Positions 4,684 through 12,752 are shown, numbered from the stretch's first letter. The stretch: DNA of 64,000 bases from a virus (IMGVR_UViG_3300013947_000019:195864-259863); one strand, 5' to 3'. The notes: a model not told the origin generated them from the letters alone. Program-made: numbers and translations.

Positions 4684-5921
4684 GATTCTTCCCCTCCTTC
4701 CTTCATCTTCTTAGAAGTTTTAATGAAGTCCATTTTCTTATGATCATTATTCTTCATACCATCTTTATCAGTATAAAAGATACCAAACTTACTCATCATT
4801 TGAATAATATCCCAAATAGCATTTTTACTATCAGATAAAGCAAGTTTAATAACTGTGGTAAAGAAGTCCTTCATTACTTCTTTATCTCCAGCATATTTAA
4901 AGATAGTAATGTCTACATTTTGTAATGCAGGATCAGCTGGAGTTGTTTCTCTTAGATTCATAGAGGTAAAGTCATTCAGATAGATGCGTTGAAGCTTTTC
5001 TGTTTCAGAGATACCGACACATGCAACCTCTCCACCTTTTCGACCAACAATCAGATAAGCTTCTCCAGTCATAGGTTCATCATTATCTACAATTGGATCA
5101 TCAGTTTCATTGGCTTCTTTACATGCAGCTTCTGTAATAACATACTTCTTCGTACCTTTATCAGAAACAAACTTTGCCTTCGAATCATAATCTTCATCAA
5201 TAATTCGATATAGAAGTTCTACAAAAGGACCATAAGATTGATCCGTGATTTTAATGTAGTTATACTTTGCCTGCTTGCGCATAACTTCATCTTTCAGTGC
5301 AACTTTGTATTTTGTCTCTTTTACAAAAGCGGGATTCGTATTTGTATGACTACCACCATCTTTGATTTCAACAATTAAGTTATAATCAGGAAGATAATAG
5401 TCGGGATCATACTGCCGATTCGTTTTTGTAACAGGATCATAATATACAAAAGTCTCTGGAGAATTCTGAATCATATTAGAAGTGAAGTCCATAATCTTAT
5501 CACAGAACTGGAGGAAGTTTTTCTCCGGTTTAGATAAGTAATCGACATATCCACCATCTTTGAACTGATATTTACCAGCAGTAGGACGATGCTTCTGCAT
5601 TTCCTTCTGGTGTTCCATATCATTCAATAGAGTAGCTTTACCATATACTTTAATATGATTCTTTAATGCTGCATCACGGAGTTTCTGCCGACAAGCAGGA
5701 TCACCACACATCTTAAACGGTTTACCAAGTTTAGTAGACCAATCTGTAGGTTTACCACAAGCCATACATTTGCCATGTAATGTACCATGAGTAGAAAAAT
5801 ACAGAGCTTGTGGGGCATCCATACCTGACTGCTGTAATTCTGCACTATGAAGCTTATAAATGTGCTCCACAGCTAAAGCTTTCTTCGGGAAATATTTATG
5901 ACAATATGGACAATTTGCCAT
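4680..5921 (-). CDS. zinc-finger + PD-(D/E)xK nuclease (TnsA-like / T4 gp4 head-completion-like)
   Basis: N-terminal CPYC..H..H and CMAC..C..C; YDPDYYLPDYNLIVEIKD nuclease motif. Confidence 0.6.
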   Translation of the reverse strand: MANCPYCHKYFPKKALAVEHIYKLHSAELQQSGMDAPQALYFSTHGTLHGKCMACGKPTDWSTKLGKPFKMCGDPACRQKLRDAALKNHIKVYGKATLLNDMEHQKEMQKHRPTAGKYQFKDGGYVDYLSKPEKNFLQFCDKIMDFTSNMIQNSPETFVYYDPVTKTNRQYDPDYYLPDYNLIVEIKDGGSHTNTNPAFVKETKYKVALKDEVMRKQAKYNYIKITDQSYGPFVELLYRIIDEDYDSKAKFVSDKGTKKYVITEAACKEANETDDPIVDNDEPMTGEAYLIVGRKGGEVACVGISETEKLQRIYLNDFTSMNLRETTPADPALQNVDITIFKYAGDKEVMKDFFTTVIKLALSDSKNAIWDIIQMMSKFGIFYTDKDGMKNNDHKKMDFIKTSKKMKEGGEES

Positions 5922-5950
5922 GAATTTTCACCTCCTAACCGCCTTGTTTC

Positions 5951-5963
5951 TTATAATTTTGTT
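5951..5963 (-). promoter_or_regulatory. late-type promoter AACA-N4-TATAA
   Basis: Matches the motif recurring upstream of structural operons. Confidence 0.55.
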
Positions 5964-6000
5964 CACGATATCATTCTATACATTATATAATATAAAGACG

Positions 6001-7141: not shown

Positions 7142-8833
7142 ATGGAGAATCAGAACCTGGATAAGATTATCCGAAATACTAATACACCAACTGAAAATAC
7201 ACCTAATACAGATCCCATGGCTGCAATCAGACAGGCAACTGGCCTGGACTTGAATATTAAGGATTTTGAAACTCAGCCTGCACAGAATGTTGATCCTGTT
7301 CCTGTTGCATATCCTGTAGACGAGAAGCCTCGTGTTACTGGTGGTATTGATGTGCTGACTCCTGAAGAGGCTGCTCAGCTCAGAGCTAATGGCAACTATC
7401 AGAAGATCGATGTAGACCGTGAAGCCATGCTGCAGCAGGAGCAGAAGCGTATTCAGAGAGAACAGCAGCAGCAGTCTGATATGAATGGTCTGTTAGATGA
7501 TGCTCTGAATGGTGAAGCTGCTCGTAATCAGAAATGGGAGAAGGCATTTGAAGAGAATCCTGAATTGAAGAAAGAACTCGTCAATAAGGAGAGTACTTCT
7601 GATACCGCTAATTATACTCCTGATATGAGTGATACTGATAAACACGTTGCTCCTATTGATCGTACTCCCATTAGAGGTTATAATGCAGAGGATGATATGA
7701 TTCCTTCTTATAGTGCTCCTACTGAATCTATTGTAGATACGCTGAAGAAGACTGATAAGGATGAAGATAATAAACCTACTGCTAATGCTTCTGAGAATGA
7801 GATGGCGGAGTATGTCAAGAATCTGACTACGATTGATTATACGGGTGCAGAAACTGAACTGGTTGATGTCTCTCGTGATCGCACTCCTATGGTTACTGAG
7901 ACTGCTCGTCCTTCCTATAAGAAGACTAACCCCATGGGTGACCAGGCATTCCTGAATGCTGTTGCTAAGTATAAGAAGGATAACTTCCGTGTAGTAAAGG
8001 CAGTTATGATCAACTCTGGTTTCGAGATTGGTGAAGTCGGTACTGGTCCTGTGGATCTGTATCAGCTGTATATGACGACTGATCAGAATACAACTGTTCT
8101 GGATTATCAGCTGGCTAAGATGACCACTGTGATTAAGAATGTAGTTTCTACGACTCCTGCGGTTGATCCTATGCAGTTAAAGAATGTACTACACTTTGCT
8201 GATTATCAGATGCTGGCTTATGCGCATGTGGCTGCTACTCTGAAAGAAGTTGAGATGCTGCATACTTGTAATAAGTGTGGTAAGGATTTCCATATTAAGG
8301 CCGCTTCTACTGATCTGATTCTGAATGCAGATGAGATGAGAGAAAAGGCTCAGCGTATTCATAATGCAACTTCCATTGAAGAGAATTCTCTGATGACGAA
8401 GGATGTTACGTATACGACTGAGAGTGGATTTGTGATTGTACTTGGTCATCCTTCTTATGCTGAGTATGCTGCTTATATGCGTGAGCTTCGTGACATTGTT
8501 GCCAATGGTGATACTGTAGTGAATAATCGCATTGAAGAGATGAATGAGATTCTTCCCTTCATTCGTAAGATTACTCTGCCTACTGGTGTTTATACTTCGA
8601 ATCTGTTCCAGCGCTTTACTGCTATTGGATTACTGTCTGATGATGACTTCAATGGCCTGAGCAAGGAAGTGACTAATCTGGCTAAGCAGATTATTATCCC
8701 GAAGTTTGGTGTAAAGAAAATCAAGTGCCCACACTGTGGTGAGGTAATCACAGATATTGCTTACGACGATCTGGATAATCTGCTTTTTTTCCATTTCACG
8801 GTAAACCGCTTATTGAAGTCAATCGACCAATAA
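7142..8833 (+). CDS. baseplate hub / tail assembly chaperone (T4 gp26-like)
   Basis: Two CxxC pairs (CNKC, CPHC) in the C-terminal half; disordered N-terminus; next to gp25-like gene. Confidence 0.5.
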   Translation: MENQNLDKIIRNTNTPTENTPNTDPMAAIRQATGLDLNIKDFETQPAQNVDPVPVAYPVDEKPRVTGGIDVLTPEEAAQLRANGNYQKIDVDREAMLQQEQKRIQREQQQQSDMNGLLDDALNGEAARNQKWEKAFEENPELKKELVNKESTSDTANYTPDMSDTDKHVAPIDRTPIRGYNAEDDMIPSYSAPTESIVDTLKKTDKDEDNKPTANASENEMAEYVKNLTTIDYTGAETELVDVSRDRTPMVTETARPSYKKTNPMGDQAFLNAVAKYKKDNFRVVKAVMINSGFEIGEVGTGPVDLYQLYMTTDQNTTVLDYQLAKMTTVIKNVVSTTPAVDPMQLKNVLHFADYQMLAYAHVAATLKEVEMLHTCNKCGKDFHIKAASTDLILNADEMREKAQRIHNATSIEENSLMTKDVTYTTESGFVIVLGHPSYAEYAAYMRELRDIVANGDTVVNNRIEEMNEILPFIRKITLPTGVYTSNLFQRFTAIGLLSDDDFNGLSKEVTNLAKQIIIPKFGVKKIKCPHCGEVITDIAYDDLDNLLFFHFTVNRLLKSIDQ

Positions 8834-9096
8834 TTAACAAATGGGTCAAAACTCTTCATGATGCTGCAAAAGATTATAAAGATATGATATATAATGCACA
8901 TAGCTTAATGAAAGACTTTTGGTCCTATAATGATCTGTATTGGATGCCATTGCGAGATTGCATTGAACAAGTTGAAGAGTTCATGCCTCGTATGAAAGAG
9001 ATCGCACGGCAACAAGAAGCAGAGCGTTTAAAGAGCGAGTTTACTGGACAGAAAAATGGAATGAGACCGATGAATAACTCCAGAAGGGGGTCGTAA
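8779..9096 (+). CDS. frameshift extension of the chaperone (includes ORF 8884-9096; T4 gp51-like)
   Basis: No SD before ATG 8884; DLYWMPLRDCIEQ resembles the gp51/GT-type 'MPxxE/D' motif. Confidence 0.5.
   Translation, partial: SAFFPFHGKPLIEVNRPIINKWVKTLHDAAKDYKDMIYNAHSLMKDFWSYNDLYWMPLRDCIEQVEEFMPRMKEIARQQEAERLKSEFTGQKNGMRPMNNSRRGS
8785..8791 (+). other. putative -1 ribosomal frameshift heptamer T TTT TTC
   Basis: The -1 frame opens right after TAA 8776-8778 and runs without a stop to 9096. Confidence 0.65.
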
Positions 9097-9100
9097 GTAA

Positions 9101-9484
9101 ATGAAAGCTTATAAGCTGAATATGACCCGACCAGAGTTTATGAATCGATTATTAACTCATTGTGATGACTCTTATGTAATAACAGAAGATGATCTGAAGA
9201 ATGCAGTTGGTACAAGTGGTGATATCCAGTATTGTGCATATACTGTGTTAATGGAGTTTAATCTTGGGAGAGATGAGATTCTGTTTATAAATAAAGATGA
9301 AGAGTCAGTCGTGGTCAAACTTCCAAGCAAGAGTCTGGCGAAAGAGATTAAAGCTGCTTGGAATAAAGAGTTAATGCGGATTGGTCTGATGATGTACCGG
9401 GTAAAGGTAAAGGCTGATGGACCATATGTGATAATCAGTGTTCATCTGGATCATGAGATCACAGACGCTTCTGAATTAGATTAA
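9101..9484 (+). CDS. hypothetical protein
   Basis: 127-aa ORF in operon. Confidence 0.7.
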   Translation: MKAYKLNMTRPEFMNRLLTHCDDSYVITEDDLKNAVGTSGDIQYCAYTVLMEFNLGRDEILFINKDEESVVVKLPSKSLAKEIKAAWNKELMRIGLMMYRVKVKADGPYVIISVHLDHEITDASELD

Positions 9485-9486
9485 TG

Positions 9487-9518
9487 AGAGCCCGGGTAAC
9501 TCCCGGGCTTCTCTTTTT
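9487..9518 (+). terminator. intrinsic terminator
   Basis: GCCCGGG-taact-CCCGGGC followed by T tract. Confidence 0.75.
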
Positions 9519-9524
9519 ATATTC

Positions 9525-9538
9525 GACATGAGTATAAT
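9525..9538 (+). promoter_or_regulatory. late-type promoter (GACA-tgag-TATAAT)
   Basis: Upstream of HNH and RNAP beta' genes. Confidence 0.6.
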
Positions 9539-9554
9539 AGAATGAGGTTATCAT

Positions 9555-10421
9555 ATGGAAATGACAAAATATAGATTTAGAGAAGGATATTATCCTACTC
9601 GTTTGCGAGATATTTGGAATTCGATGCATAATAGATGTAAAAATATTAAGTCAGCGAGTTATCCAAGATATGGTGGACGAGGAATTAAAGTTTGCGATGA
9701 GTGGTCTGATAAAAACACTGGTTTTTATAATTTTGTTAATTGGTCACTTGAAAACGGTTATGCTGAACAGTTATCTATCGATCGTATAGATAATGATAGT
9801 CCATATGCTCCATGGAATTGTCGATGGGCTACACCAAAAGAGCAGGCTAACAATACTGCAAAGAATGTACGTATTACATATAATGGAAAAACTCATACAG
9901 CTTCTGAATGGGCAGGAATTACTGGAATTAAACGAAAAACAATACTTAAACGATATCATTCTGGAAAATCATTAGATGAAGTATTTAAACCAGTTCAGAA
10001 AGAAAAGAGATATAATATTAATGGTAAAGAATATACAATACATGAACTTTCTAAACTTACAGGCATAAAAGTAAGAACTTTACGTTTTCGAATAAAAAAT
10101 GGAAAATTTGATAATATTATGGAACCAGCAGGGTCTAATCGTATAACTGATGTTAATATTACATATGAGGGGCTGACATTTAATGTAGCAGACTGGGCAA
10201 AACTTACTGGGTTACCACGAGACACACTATATAGTAGAATATATAATAAATTACCCACATCTGAAGTTTTATTGCGAAAAAGTGGTGAATTAAAATATAA
10301 GCCTAAAAACATAAAACCATTAAATACATATAAATTTCCAAATGGCAATTATGCTAAAGATGGACAATATTATGATTCTGATGGGTTTATTAAATTAATC
10401 CCAAAAAGAAAGAAGGGATAA
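9555..10421 (+). CDS. free-standing HNH homing endonuclease with C-terminal DNA-binding repeats
   Basis: RYGGRGIKVCDEW...SIDRIDNDSPYAPWNCRWAT motif; three I-T-Y/I-N-G...EWAxxTG HTH-like repeats. Confidence 0.85.
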   Translation: MEMTKYRFREGYYPTRLRDIWNSMHNRCKNIKSASYPRYGGRGIKVCDEWSDKNTGFYNFVNWSLENGYAEQLSIDRIDNDSPYAPWNCRWATPKEQANNTAKNVRITYNGKTHTASEWAGITGIKRKTILKRYHSGKSLDEVFKPVQKEKRYNINGKEYTIHELSKLTGIKVRTLRFRIKNGKFDNIMEPAGSNRITDVNITYEGLTFNVADWAKLTGLPRDTLYSRIYNKLPTSEVLLRKSGELKYKPKNIKPLNTYKFPNGNYAKDGQYYDSDGFIKLIPKRKKG

Positions 10422-10422
10422 A

Positions 10423-12752
10423 ATGGGATCTACTGGTTTACAGCTTGATCTGCTTGATATTGATAAGTTTATCCGTGTGAATGGACTACAGCCTGTGGGT
10501 AATCCAATTTTCTTAGATCGTAATATGCCTACTCGAGATGGTGTATTATCCTATGAAATTTTTGGTACTTCACAGGAAGAACGCAGAAATCGTTTTGCCT
10601 ATATTGATCTCCACCAGCATTATATGCATCCACTTGCTGCTACGAAGTTAAGTGGGTATGACCGTACACTTAGTAAGGTATTATTCAGTCAGTCTGCTTA
10701 TATTCTGAAAGATGGTGCACTAATTGAAGACTATGAAAATGGTAGATCTGGTCCTGAATTTCTGTATGAAATTTGGGGTAAAGTAAAAGTCAGAGATAAG
10801 GATACAATTACGACTAAAGAATTAGAGAAATTCTTTAAACAGGATCGTAATCAATTATTTATTACAAAGTGGTTGGTGATCCCTGCATTCTATCGTGATC
10901 TGAATATGACAGATGATGGTAGTGGTTTAAAGAAGAGTTCATCTACTTTAAATAGTATGTATTCTTCCATTATCTCTTATGTGCAGACATTGAATACATA
11001 TAGTGATATTTCTCATTATGCACGTTTGACACAATCTCGTGTACAGACATTACTCTGTGATCTGTATGAGAAACTGATGGTAGAAACAGTAAAGGGTAAA
11101 CCTTCTAAGTTTGGTATGCTTAAGAGAAGTTTACAAGCAAAGAATGTTAACTATTCTTCTCGCTTAGTATTATCTTCTCCTATTTTACAGAAGTCATCCT
11201 ATGAAGATGTACAAGTGAAATTTGGTTCTGCTACTATCCCGTTGGCTTATACAATTACTTCTTTCTTACCATTTGTTGTCTATCAAATGAAGCAGTTCTT
11301 TGATAGTAACTTTATTCAGGGTGGTAAAGTTCCTGTTATGAATAGAAGTACAAGAAAGATTGAATATACTTCTTTCAAGAACTCTTATGACGAGACAGAG
11401 ATTACGAAATTTATTAATCTATATCTGAATGATCCTGGCTCTCGTTTTAATCCGATGATCACTCCAGAAGATACCAATGGTAATACTCACCAAATGGTAA
11501 TTGTGGGACGATTTGGAAAAGAAAACACCACGATCTCTCGTGGTGCTACATTAACTGATATATTGTATATCTGTACAGTAGAAGCTACAAAAGATAAACA
11601 TGTGTTTGTTACTCGATATCCTTTGGATAACTATAATGGTCAATGGCCAGGTCGAGTAAATGTTTCTTCTACTATTAAAACTACTCCAGCATTAATTGGT
11701 AATACTTTCTATCCTTTCTATCCGGTATGTGAAGGAGATCCAATGAATGCTTTTGTAGATACGCTTCAGTTCAGTAATACAATGATTGATAAAATGGGTG
11801 CGGACTTAACTGTATCAAATGTCATGGTCCGTGCGGTGAGTAATCCCGTAAGAATAAACCAGTGAACGACTAACAATCGGTGTTGGTATAATTCATTATA
11901 TCAGCTAACGGTATCACCTAGAATAACCCAGGGGTAGGACTTCCACCCACCTACCTATACCAAACTGGCGAATGCGGTGACTAAGAGAACCTGACTCCCT
12001 GGATTATCTAGGGACATATGGAAATACCGTGCTTGGAAATATACAGGAATGTATGTGGATGAGTGTAGAGACTAATTGTAGGATTACGGTTGTGGCTGTA
12101 ATTCGAAGTGCTGGTTCCCTGAATGTATAAGACTCCAGGGTAAAGAGATAGTCCACATAGAAGTATATTACATACCAGTCCATGGATGAAATACTTAATA
12201 ACCGTTGTCCATGTAAAATCTACCTTAATTGCGGGAATCCCTTAGAGCTTACTATCGCTACAACGTGACCGAAAGGTGAGCGTGAATGCTGGCATTTATC
12301 AACGTTCGCGGGTTGAGTGGAGACCATAAAAAGTATAGTAAGATTGGGTAACCATAGGTTCAAGTCCTATAGACGCAGCTAAATCTCCTAAGTCAATATT
12401 GATATGGAGACTGTTCAGAGACTACGGGTAGACTCATATAAACATATGAGATTGTATAGTCCAATCAATAGTGAAAACTGTTATAATAAAGATTCTCTGA
12501 TATTTGATGATCTTTATTAATTAGTCGGACGGTGATACGTGTAGCCTCAGAGGGGTATTTACCAAGGAAGCTAATGCTGAGGCTGAGCAGAGAATTAACT
12601 CTGTAGCATATTTATTAGATGTTGAAGGTAAGTTTATGCGCAGTATTGGTAAAGATTTTAACTTATGCCTATATAACCTTACCAGAACATATGATAATAA
12701 AGTTGATTTCTTACAAGATATCAATAAAGAAAAACCTAAGTATGTAATTTAA
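10423..12752 (+). CDS. rpoC: RNA polymerase beta' subunit (catalytic piece, probably virion RNAP); spliced join(10423..11806,12186..12187,12528..12752), 536 aa
   Basis: DGVLSYEIFG, GKPSKFGMLKRSLQAKNVNYSSR and RYP motifs; splicing restores MGADYDGDTC (NADFDGD equivalent); exon 3 is open for 74 codons to TAA 12750. Confidence 0.85.
11807..12185 (+). mobile_element. group I intron 1 (no ORF)
   Basis: P1 GCGGACU/GGUCCGU with U-G at 11806; P3 AACCAG/CUGGUU; P7 GACUA/UAGUC (R GUAGAGACUA, S GAGAUAGUCC); terminal G at 12185. Confidence 0.85.
12188..12527 (+). mobile_element. group I intron 2 (no ORF)
   Basis: P1 CAUGGAU/GUCCAUG; P AAUUGCGGGAA, Q GACGCAGC, R GUUCAGAGACUA, S GUAUAGUCC; P3 UCUACC/GGUAGA; P10 ACCGUU/GACGGU; terminal G at 12527. 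Confidence 0.88.

Follow-up and report, generated by a model that had tools for sequence, protein, structure and literature searches.

The 64,000-nucleotide (nt) stretch analysed here (IMGVR_UViG_3300013947_000019, positions 195864-259863; hereafter the window) is part of a 259,863-bp IMG/VR virus record, judged complete, of a gut jumbo phage. On its plus strand the window carries a gene for the N-terminal part of the β' subunit of a virion-type RNA polymerase (RNAP), the catalytic motif of which is, with high probability, interrupted by two tandem group I introns separated by an exon of only two nucleotides, AU (Table 1). The open reading frame (ORF) called mechanically for this gene, 10423..11865, runs into the first intron and ends there at a TGA codon (11863-65). 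A tblastn search with this ORF retrieved AR9 g145, annotated as "virion RNAP subunit, beta' N-terminus", and the homologues of phages LPJP1 and BpSp (E 1e-61 to 1e-73). For exon 1, Pfam alone and a single-sequence phmmer search against the PDB gave no matches and a family profile was needed; the profile built from ten family members matches the AR9 nvRNAP β' subunit (7S00/7S01, E 5e-17) as well as bacterial β' subunits. Together with this homology, the gene contains the (N)ADxDGD metal-binding loop, which is rebuilt only when both introns are removed. No second copy of the RNAP β' N-terminal gene was found in the genome, and the gene is thus single-copy.

Table 1. Predicted features of the split RNAP gene and its introns, and antisense endonuclease genes in related alleles (numbering of the window unless a related stretch is named)
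Feature	Coordinates	Strand	Description
Exon 1	10423..11806	+	virion-type RNAP β' N-terminal subunit gene; ends ...ATG GGT GCG GAC T
Intron 1	11807..12185	+	379 nt, no ORF, group I, IA-like layout; last base G12185
Micro-exon AU	12186..12187	+	second and third base of the Tyr codon U-AU
Intron 2	12188..12527	+	340 nt, no ORF, group I; last base G12527
Exon 3	12528..12752	+	GAC GGT GAT ACG ... (DGDTCSLRGVFTKEANAE..., 74 amino acids) and stop codon; translation, LPJP1/BpSp alignment
Intron 1 guide	11821..11832	+	GUCAUGGUCCGU; GUCAU (11821-25) is the P10 strand, GGUCCGU (11826-32) the P1 strand
Intron 1 core	11857..12153	+	hand model, covariation
Intron 1 P3	11857-63/12110-16		AACCAGU/GCUGGUU
Intron 1 P4	11908-14/12024-30
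Intron 1 P6	12031-64
Intron 1 P7	12070-74/12149-53
Intron 1 P7.x	12081-12104
Intron 1 P8	12117-21/12136-40
Intron 1 J8/7			GUAAAGAGA
Intron 2 guide	12202..12213	+	CCGUUGUCCAUG; CCGUU (12202-06) is the P10 strand, GUCCAUG (12207-13) the P1 strand
Intron 2 core	12219..12482	+	Rfam alignment
Intron 2 P3	12219-24/12427-32
Intron 2 P4	12229-33/12374-78
Intron 2 P6	12384-88/12406-10
Intron 2 P7	12420-24/12457-61
Intron 2 P8	12433-39/12444-50
Intron 2 P9	12467-71/12478-82
GIY-YIG genes	L006 4742-5467, L020 ~9200-9950	-	lineage found only in alleles with intron 2
GIY-YIG genes	L008 ~5240-5975, L016 ~650-1385, L007 4736-5434	-	lineage of alleles without group I intron 2

The exon boundaries follow from comparison with intronless homologues, which read ALGADYDGDTLS in Listeria phage LPJP1 (longer stretch ALGADYDGDTLSIRGVFS) and ALGGDYDGDTVS in Bacillus phage BpSp (longer stretch ALGGDYDGDTVSLRGVFS), i.e., GADYDGD and GGDYDGD at the motif. 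In this alignment exactly one residue, Tyr, is absent between GAD and DGD, and the last T of exon 1 together with AT supplies exactly one codon. When AU is kept, the message reads GAC UAU GAC GGU GAU (D-Y-D-G-D) and encodes a protein of 536 amino acids; no other joining gives the motif, and the fully spliced junction under the two-intron model is GCGGACU-AU-GACGGUGAU. The context of the micro-exon, ...GTCCATGG-AT-GAA..., is conserved in two related alleles, L006 and L020. Other boundaries were considered and rejected: by hand, no single pair of a 5' U and a 3' G restores the frame, the alternative 3' site at G12524 would add a Ser and lacks a P10, and that at G12184 breaks the frame. A first-pass annotation of this DNA had proposed two group I introns around a retained 2-nt exon that restores GADYDGD and had noted the false end of the ORF at 11865; its positions (11806, 12186-12187, 12528, 11821-11825, 12181-12187 and 12207-12213) are all correct on the sequence, the ADYDGD that it expected of intronless homologues appears as ADYDGD in LPJP1 and GDYDGD in BpSp, and the proposed anatomy is borne out by the homologues, by alleles with intron 1 alone and by the covariation described below. 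The group I covariance models that it recommended gave two RF00028 matches side by side, both below the cut-off.

The Rfam gathering cut-off for RF00028 is 50 bits. At the gathering thresholds Rfam gave no match in the whole window, whereas a local search by E-value returned two adjacent full-length RF00028 matches at 11862-12174 and 12187-12483. The RF00028 model performs poorly with the IA introns of phages, and intron 1 is filed here as group I by its structural features despite the sub-threshold score. Among relatives of intron 1 gathered from IMG/VR and metagenomes, RNAalifold detected compensatory changes at 31 of the 90 pairs. In a hand model of P1 to P8 with a P3/P7 pseudoknot, tested on six of these sequences, 95.3% of the cells are standard pairs and 32 pairs, including pairs of P3 and P7, are changed on both sides, compared with 30-38% paired cells and 0-4 doubly changed pairs in controls with slid partner strands. 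The conserved core, comprising the P3/P7 pseudoknot, the P4-P6 domain, P8 and J8/7, is thus present, and the model also has P2 and a large P5 extension. Phage-type IA introns such as those of Twort and td have the same order P7, P7.x, P3', P8; an unusual trait is the presence of two additional hairpins after P3 and before P4. In L011 (~4975-5375), L012 (~4830-5235) and L020 (~8560-8935) a further ORF-sized insertion, apparently on the opposite strand, occupies the loop of the second such hairpin (window 11882-11905). Two candidate elements were discarded, namely the P3 proposed by Rfam (AUCAG/CUGAC), which clashes with a covarying hairpin while AACCAGU/GCUGGUU covaries instead, and the first GACUA (11979-83) as a P7 strand, which sits in the P5 extension.

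Intron 2 aligns over its full length with its copy in L006, with the first intron of the DNA polymerase gene of the same genome and with an intron interrupting a ribonucleotide reductase (nrd) gene in Enterococcus phage phiEF17H; a pattern search placed 22 IMG/VR stretches in this family. Every intron 2 core pair of Table 1 is a standard one in the window and in both L006 and L020, P8 of L020 carries double changes, and the family alignment contains compensatory hairpins. The conserved P3-P9 core is therefore present, less thoroughly tested than that of intron 1. RNAalifold on four relatives gave a poor consensus, and alignment offsets distorted the column-mapped pair counts of distant members, so that the comparison was restricted to the close alleles and to P1/P7. 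Two strain single-nucleotide polymorphisms (12440 and 12443) lie within the P8 loop. A hairpin in the P5 extension (12351-12372), with the loop GGUUCAAGUCC, resembles the T-arm of a tRNA, and its stem is kept via compensatory changes across the intron family.

Each intron carries near its 5' end a guide that is complementary to both sides of its junction. The guide of intron 1 matches 12 nt, GCGGACU-AUGAC; the 5' splice-site U11806 forms with G11826 the wobble pair that closes P1 (GCGGACU/GGUCCGU), and the terminal G (ωG, G12185) and a P10 are in place. The guide of intron 2 likewise matches 12 nt, CAUGGAU-GACGG, with a U12187-G12207 wobble, a terminal G12527 and a P10 of GACGG/CCGUU. When the 40 nt at the intron start were shuffled in 20,000 trials, with G-U pairs allowed, a run of 12 was reached in 2 of 20000 shuffles for intron 1 (p about 1e-4) and in 1 of 20000 for intron 2 (p about 5e-5). 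The P10 strands also covary with the downstream exons, for intron 1 as GUCAA with UCGAC in L008, GUCGU with AUGAU in L009 and GUUAU with AUGAU in L020, and for intron 2 in L006, where both sides differ from the window, exon 3 beginning GAU GG (GAC GG in the window) and the P10 strand reading CCAUU (CCGUU in the window). Guanosine-dependent self-splicing of either intron is presumed.

Homologues of intron 1 occupy the same site in L006-L009, L011, L012, L014, L016 and L020. Intron 1 alone and without an ORF is present in L009 (polymerase 86% identical to that of the window), as GAC T-intron ending AAAATCG-AT GAT GGT GAT, and in L008 (95%) it is alone with an antisense GIY-YIG gene, as GAC T-intron ending CAAAG-TC GAC GGT GAT (DFDGD). 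In L014 (48%) and L007 (62%) the homologue lies one base upstream (GAT-TAC and GAT-TAT), and in L011 intron 1 is followed by G-AT GAC GG without the group I intron 2. The series intron 1, AU, intron 2 recurs in L006 (95%) and L020 (63%). Four further samples, all from one study, gave DNA-like contigs that span the whole arrangement colinearly, with no joints and no intron-free form; a DNA-pattern search of IMG/VR for a close intron-free allele found only unrelated polymerases with MGADFDGD. Since these relatives include alleles with intron 1 alone, intron 1 is a long-standing and widespread resident of the site in this clade, and intron 2 a later arrival 2 nt downstream. The antisense homing endonuclease genes of the GIY-YIG family (Pfam PF01541) lie in the 3' part of intron 1 and form two lineages (Table 1); for L016 the contig ends before the site that would tell the status of intron 2, and the introns of the window contain no endonuclease gene. 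The distribution among alleles suggests that the endonuclease gene and the tail of intron 1 are mobile together with AU and intron 2, as a single cassette. Intron 2 probably arrived together with an antisense GIY-YIG gene and a remodelled intron 1 tail, and the window allele would since have lost the endonuclease gene. In L020 (10295-10310) intron 2 ends ...CATTTA before GAT GGT GAT, so that A rather than G precedes exon 3, and use of the next G as the 3' end would break the frame; this could reflect an assembly error, a terminal base other than G or an allele that no longer functions.

Because the exon between the introns is only 2 nt long, P1 of intron 2 would recruit CAUGG from the tail of intron 1, an arrangement already proposed by the first-pass annotation and one that we consider likely. 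The predicted helix, CAUGGAU (12181-87) with GUCCAUG (12207-13), has 7 bp and a stability of -9.0 kcal/mol; its substrate strand consists of C12181-G12185 of intron 1, the terminal G included, plus A12186-U12187, and G12184 and G12185 are paired with C12210 and C12209. The register agrees with that of the paralogues: GUCCAUG directly precedes UAAAAUC-P3, where the DNA polymerase paralogue has GUCGAUG, which pairs with the ordinary exon UAUCGAU (covariation CG to UG and GC to CG), and other family members have GUCCAC with GUGGAU. The register of P10, which is fixed by the compensatory change in L006, is contiguous with this P1. The window, L006 and L020 share the tail GUCCAUGG without a difference, even though intron 2 of L020 is only 77% identical to that of the window, whereas the intron 1 tails of alleles that lack group I intron 2 are unrelated (UCAAAG, AAAUCG, UUAAUG, ACAUCG). 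If intron 1 is removed in silico, the only productive complementarity left is AU plus GACGG, a run of 7 (p 0.09), and the most stable guide duplex, with exon 1, is out of register and non-productive. As a local structure the P1 hairpin of intron 2 is the minimum-energy fold, with a pair probability of 0.68. The self-complementary CAUG occurs at 11823-26 (guide of intron 1), 12181-84 (tail) and 12210-13 (guide of intron 2), which on paper permits alternative pairings. One of these, between the guide of intron 1 and its own tail (UCAUGG/CCAUGG), was dismissed with a pair probability of about 0.

The shared helix bears directly on the order of splicing. Since P1 of intron 2 uses the tail of intron 1, intron 2 would have to carry out both of its steps with that tail still attached, and as long as the terminal G of intron 1 is held in the hairpin it would be unable to enter its own binding site. 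This pairing of the terminal G would be a stronger argument for a fixed order than the P10 of intron 1, from which the first-pass annotation had also reasoned, taking AUGAC to exist only after removal of intron 2. That part does not hold: in all three alleles intron 2 begins GAAAU, so that AUGA, with 4 of the 5 P10 pairs, is already present in the precursor and the P10 of intron 1 therefore enforces no order. In the precursor AUGA gives 4 bp and -2.0 kcal/mol, compared with 5 bp and -5.4 kcal/mol for AUGAC after intron 2 is gone. The obligatory order that had been claimed thus keeps its P1 argument and loses much of its P10 argument; an effectively obligatory order with intron 2 first is, judging from the sequence, somewhat favoured.

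According to the proposed mechanism, the P1 hairpin of intron 2 would form upon transcription, with no more than 28 nt left to be transcribed, and would offer the AU-G site to intron 2 while withholding the terminal G from intron 1. The first step of intron 1, cleavage after U11806, could take place at any time. Intron 2 would then be spliced out completely, joining ...CAUGGAU to GACGG, and the expected intermediate would be exon 1-intron 1-AU-exon 3 with the junction CCAUGGAU-GACGG. With its tail freed, intron 1 would dock its terminal G, complete its P10 to 5 bp (AUGAC/GUCAU) and join exon 1 to AU-exon 3. If intron 1 were to finish first, intron 2 would be left with a 2-bp P1 and stranded; the corresponding disfavoured intermediate, exon 1-AU-intron 2, would have the junction GCGGACUAU-GAAAUAC. 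Taken as a whole, this explanation of anatomy, history, lock and order is the one we favour, with reasonable but limited confidence.

Several points weigh against it. Both introns score below the RF00028 cut-off (16.8 bits, E 0.13 for intron 1; 25.6 bits, E 3e-4 for intron 2, with 31.5 bits for its L006 copy), and no RNA run is listed as containing this phage stretch. P1 of intron 2 is identical among the three tandem alleles and thus shows no covariation there, and this identity may stem from cassette transfer rather than constraint; in longer precursor folds, which are unreliable at such lengths, its pair probability drops to 0.10-0.38. Given the 4-bp P10 in the precursor, only the proposed lock would stop intron 1 from finishing first, and after its loss an alternative P1 could form between GGACUAU and GUUGUCC (12204-10), with six pairs and a U-U mismatch. 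Finally, at the 1-nt exon of placozoan mitochondrial cox1, splicing intermediates of both orders have been observed (PMC5436844).

The same observations feed the chief competitor, in which the tandem introns and the 2-nt exon are as described but no order is fixed and both pathways yield mRNA: intron 1 would finish with the 4-bp P10, after which intron 2 would use GUUGUCC on GGACUAU or be helped by a protein cofactor. The P10 already formed in the precursor, the alternative P1 of the window, in which six of seven positions pair with a U-G at the site, and the placozoan precedent (PMC5436844) all speak for it. However, L006 and L020 have A in place of the wobble G of this alternative P1, and the variation at this position instead follows the exon so as to keep P10 paired; once intron 1 is gone, the best duplex is non-productive, and the canonical P1 register agrees with that of the paralogues; we regard the absence of an order as possible, though rather unlikely. 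The sub-threshold Rfam scores, the lost homing endonuclease gene of the window and the missing G before exon 3 of L020 would also suit a decaying gene, the ORF-less introns of which no longer splice. Such decay is improbable in view of exons that stay in frame across relatives of 48-95% identity, helices maintained by compensatory changes, the lack of a second gene copy in the genome and the recurrence of the same arrangement in four further samples. The scenario to which we give least credence treats the 721-nt insert as one composite side-by-side "zombie" twintron removed in a single event from 11807 to 12527. It has a precedent in the Ophiostoma cox3-640 tandem group IA modules, which splice as one (PMC12308204), and exon skipping is reported for Twort orf142 (PMC10136302). 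Joining U11806 to G12528, though, gives GAC UGA..., a frameshift and immediate stop in a single-copy essential gene; the guide of intron 1 has no direct match to exon 3, and AU stays an ordinary exon in alleles with intron 1 alone. The term twintron in its usual sense, an intron within an intron, was set aside as well, since two exon bases needed in the mRNA lie between the introns and each core is complete.

The motif attracts further introns in related phages. In polymerase genes whose products are 49-62% identical to that of the window, an ORF-less group II intron sits in the same motif, inside the third Asp codon (GGA G-AY), in L007 (4381-6020; also in L010), L011 (4894-6160) and L013 (2869-3350); its scores, 54.6-99.9 bits for RF02004 and 45.5-67 bits for RF00029, are all above threshold. 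In L007 (GAT-group I intron-TATGACGGAG-group II intron-AC ACT) and L011 (GAC T-group I intron-ATGACGGAG-group II intron-AT ACG) it follows the group I intron after 9-10 nt, and the group II intron of L007 starts with UUGACG rather than GUGYG. Since the exon between the two introns in L007 and L011 is shorter than the usual target of intron-binding sites 1 and 2 (IBS1+IBS2), a similar interdependence may apply to these group I-group II pairs. Related gut jumbo phages have up to three introns, two of group I and one of group II, within 12 nt of the motif, which marks it as an extreme hot spot. A second tandem pair is present in the DNA polymerase gene of the same genome (G000:C1, ~136160-135480, minus strand, ~59.7 kb before the window), arranged as ATC GAT-intron A-ACAGATTCT-intron B-AAC TTT, where intron A is the paralogue of intron 2; P1 of intron B (AGAUUCU/GGAAUCU) fits entirely within the 9-nt exon of this pair, which is therefore not interlocked. 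Directly upstream of the split RNAP gene, the window contains a free-standing ORF of 288 amino acids (9555-10421, plus strand) with repeated weak helix-turn-helix matches (MerR/HTH_17) below the cut-off and an N-terminal region that by eye resembles an HNH/AP2-type homing endonuclease; its product might mobilise the ORF-less introns in trans.

The first-pass annotation called a 2-nt exon with interlocked guides very unusual; 1-nt micro-exons between organellar introns are already known. The closest case is placozoan mitochondrial cox1, where two group IB introns flank a 1-nt micro-exon (Osigus et al., 2017; PMC5436844). There, too, the micro-exon completes the codon of a conserved residue and a second intron was inserted beside a resident one, but that case is organellar and animal, came with no analysis of the guide pairings and yielded intermediates of both orders; in the phage, known here from DNA alone, the use of the upstream tail and terminal G by the downstream P1 is explicit and comparatively supported. 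In fungal mitochondria, two group II introns with a 1-nt exon between them are described at rnl-576/577 (PMC12308204, citing Mayers 2021). Like the phage pair, these are adjacent self-splicing introns around a minimal exon, with a proposed tandem splicing pathway; unlike it, they belong to group II, recognise their targets through exon- and intron-binding sites (EBS/IBS) and reside in an rRNA gene.

In Staphylococcus phage Twort orf142, which has three group I introns, and in Coxiella 23S rRNA, the tandem introns are separated by longer exons (23 nt and 34 nt, respectively; summarised in PMC10136302). Twort resembles the present case in having tandem phage-type (IA) introns in one phage gene, with neighbouring ribozymes that interact. 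Both differ in that their exons are long enough for a whole P1 plus P10 and exon skipping is noted, whereas in the phage RNAP gene the exon is too short for P1 and skipping would ruin the frame. The orthologous AR9/PBS1 g145 gene, annotated as a virion RNAP subunit and joined from three pieces, has one intron of group I and one of group II (Lavysh, 2016, cited in PMC12350094). Its group I intron lies in the same DYDGD motif (GAC TAC GAT-GGT GAT), but ~180 nt separate the two introns, both of which contain an endonuclease gene of their own, and there is neither a micro-exon nor a shared helix. Nested twintrons share with our proposal that RNA structure dictates the order of removal, the internal intron first; in them the inner intron breaks the outer fold, whereas the two phage cores are each complete and stand apart, with no more than a terminal helix in common. 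To our knowledge, no virus or phage was previously known to have such a micro-exon, and here the interlock is directly readable from the sequence and the comparative data.

For annotation, the consequence is that gene callers cut an essential polymerase subunit short at 11865. For the biology of these phages, we tentatively propose an RNA-encoded hierarchy of two autonomous ribozymes with P1 of intron 2 as the lock, in which the virion RNAP would be obtained only via a fixed cascade, and the tail of intron 1, AU, intron 2 and the antisense GIY-YIG gene may travel between phages as a composite mobile cassette. Group I introns are commonly regarded as acting independently of one another. In this gene, the exon between two of them is too short for any P1 helix, and therefore one ribozyme must read the tail of the other. 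With ~750 nt and no encoded proteins, the locus constitutes a compact natural system for the coordination of neighbouring ribozymes.

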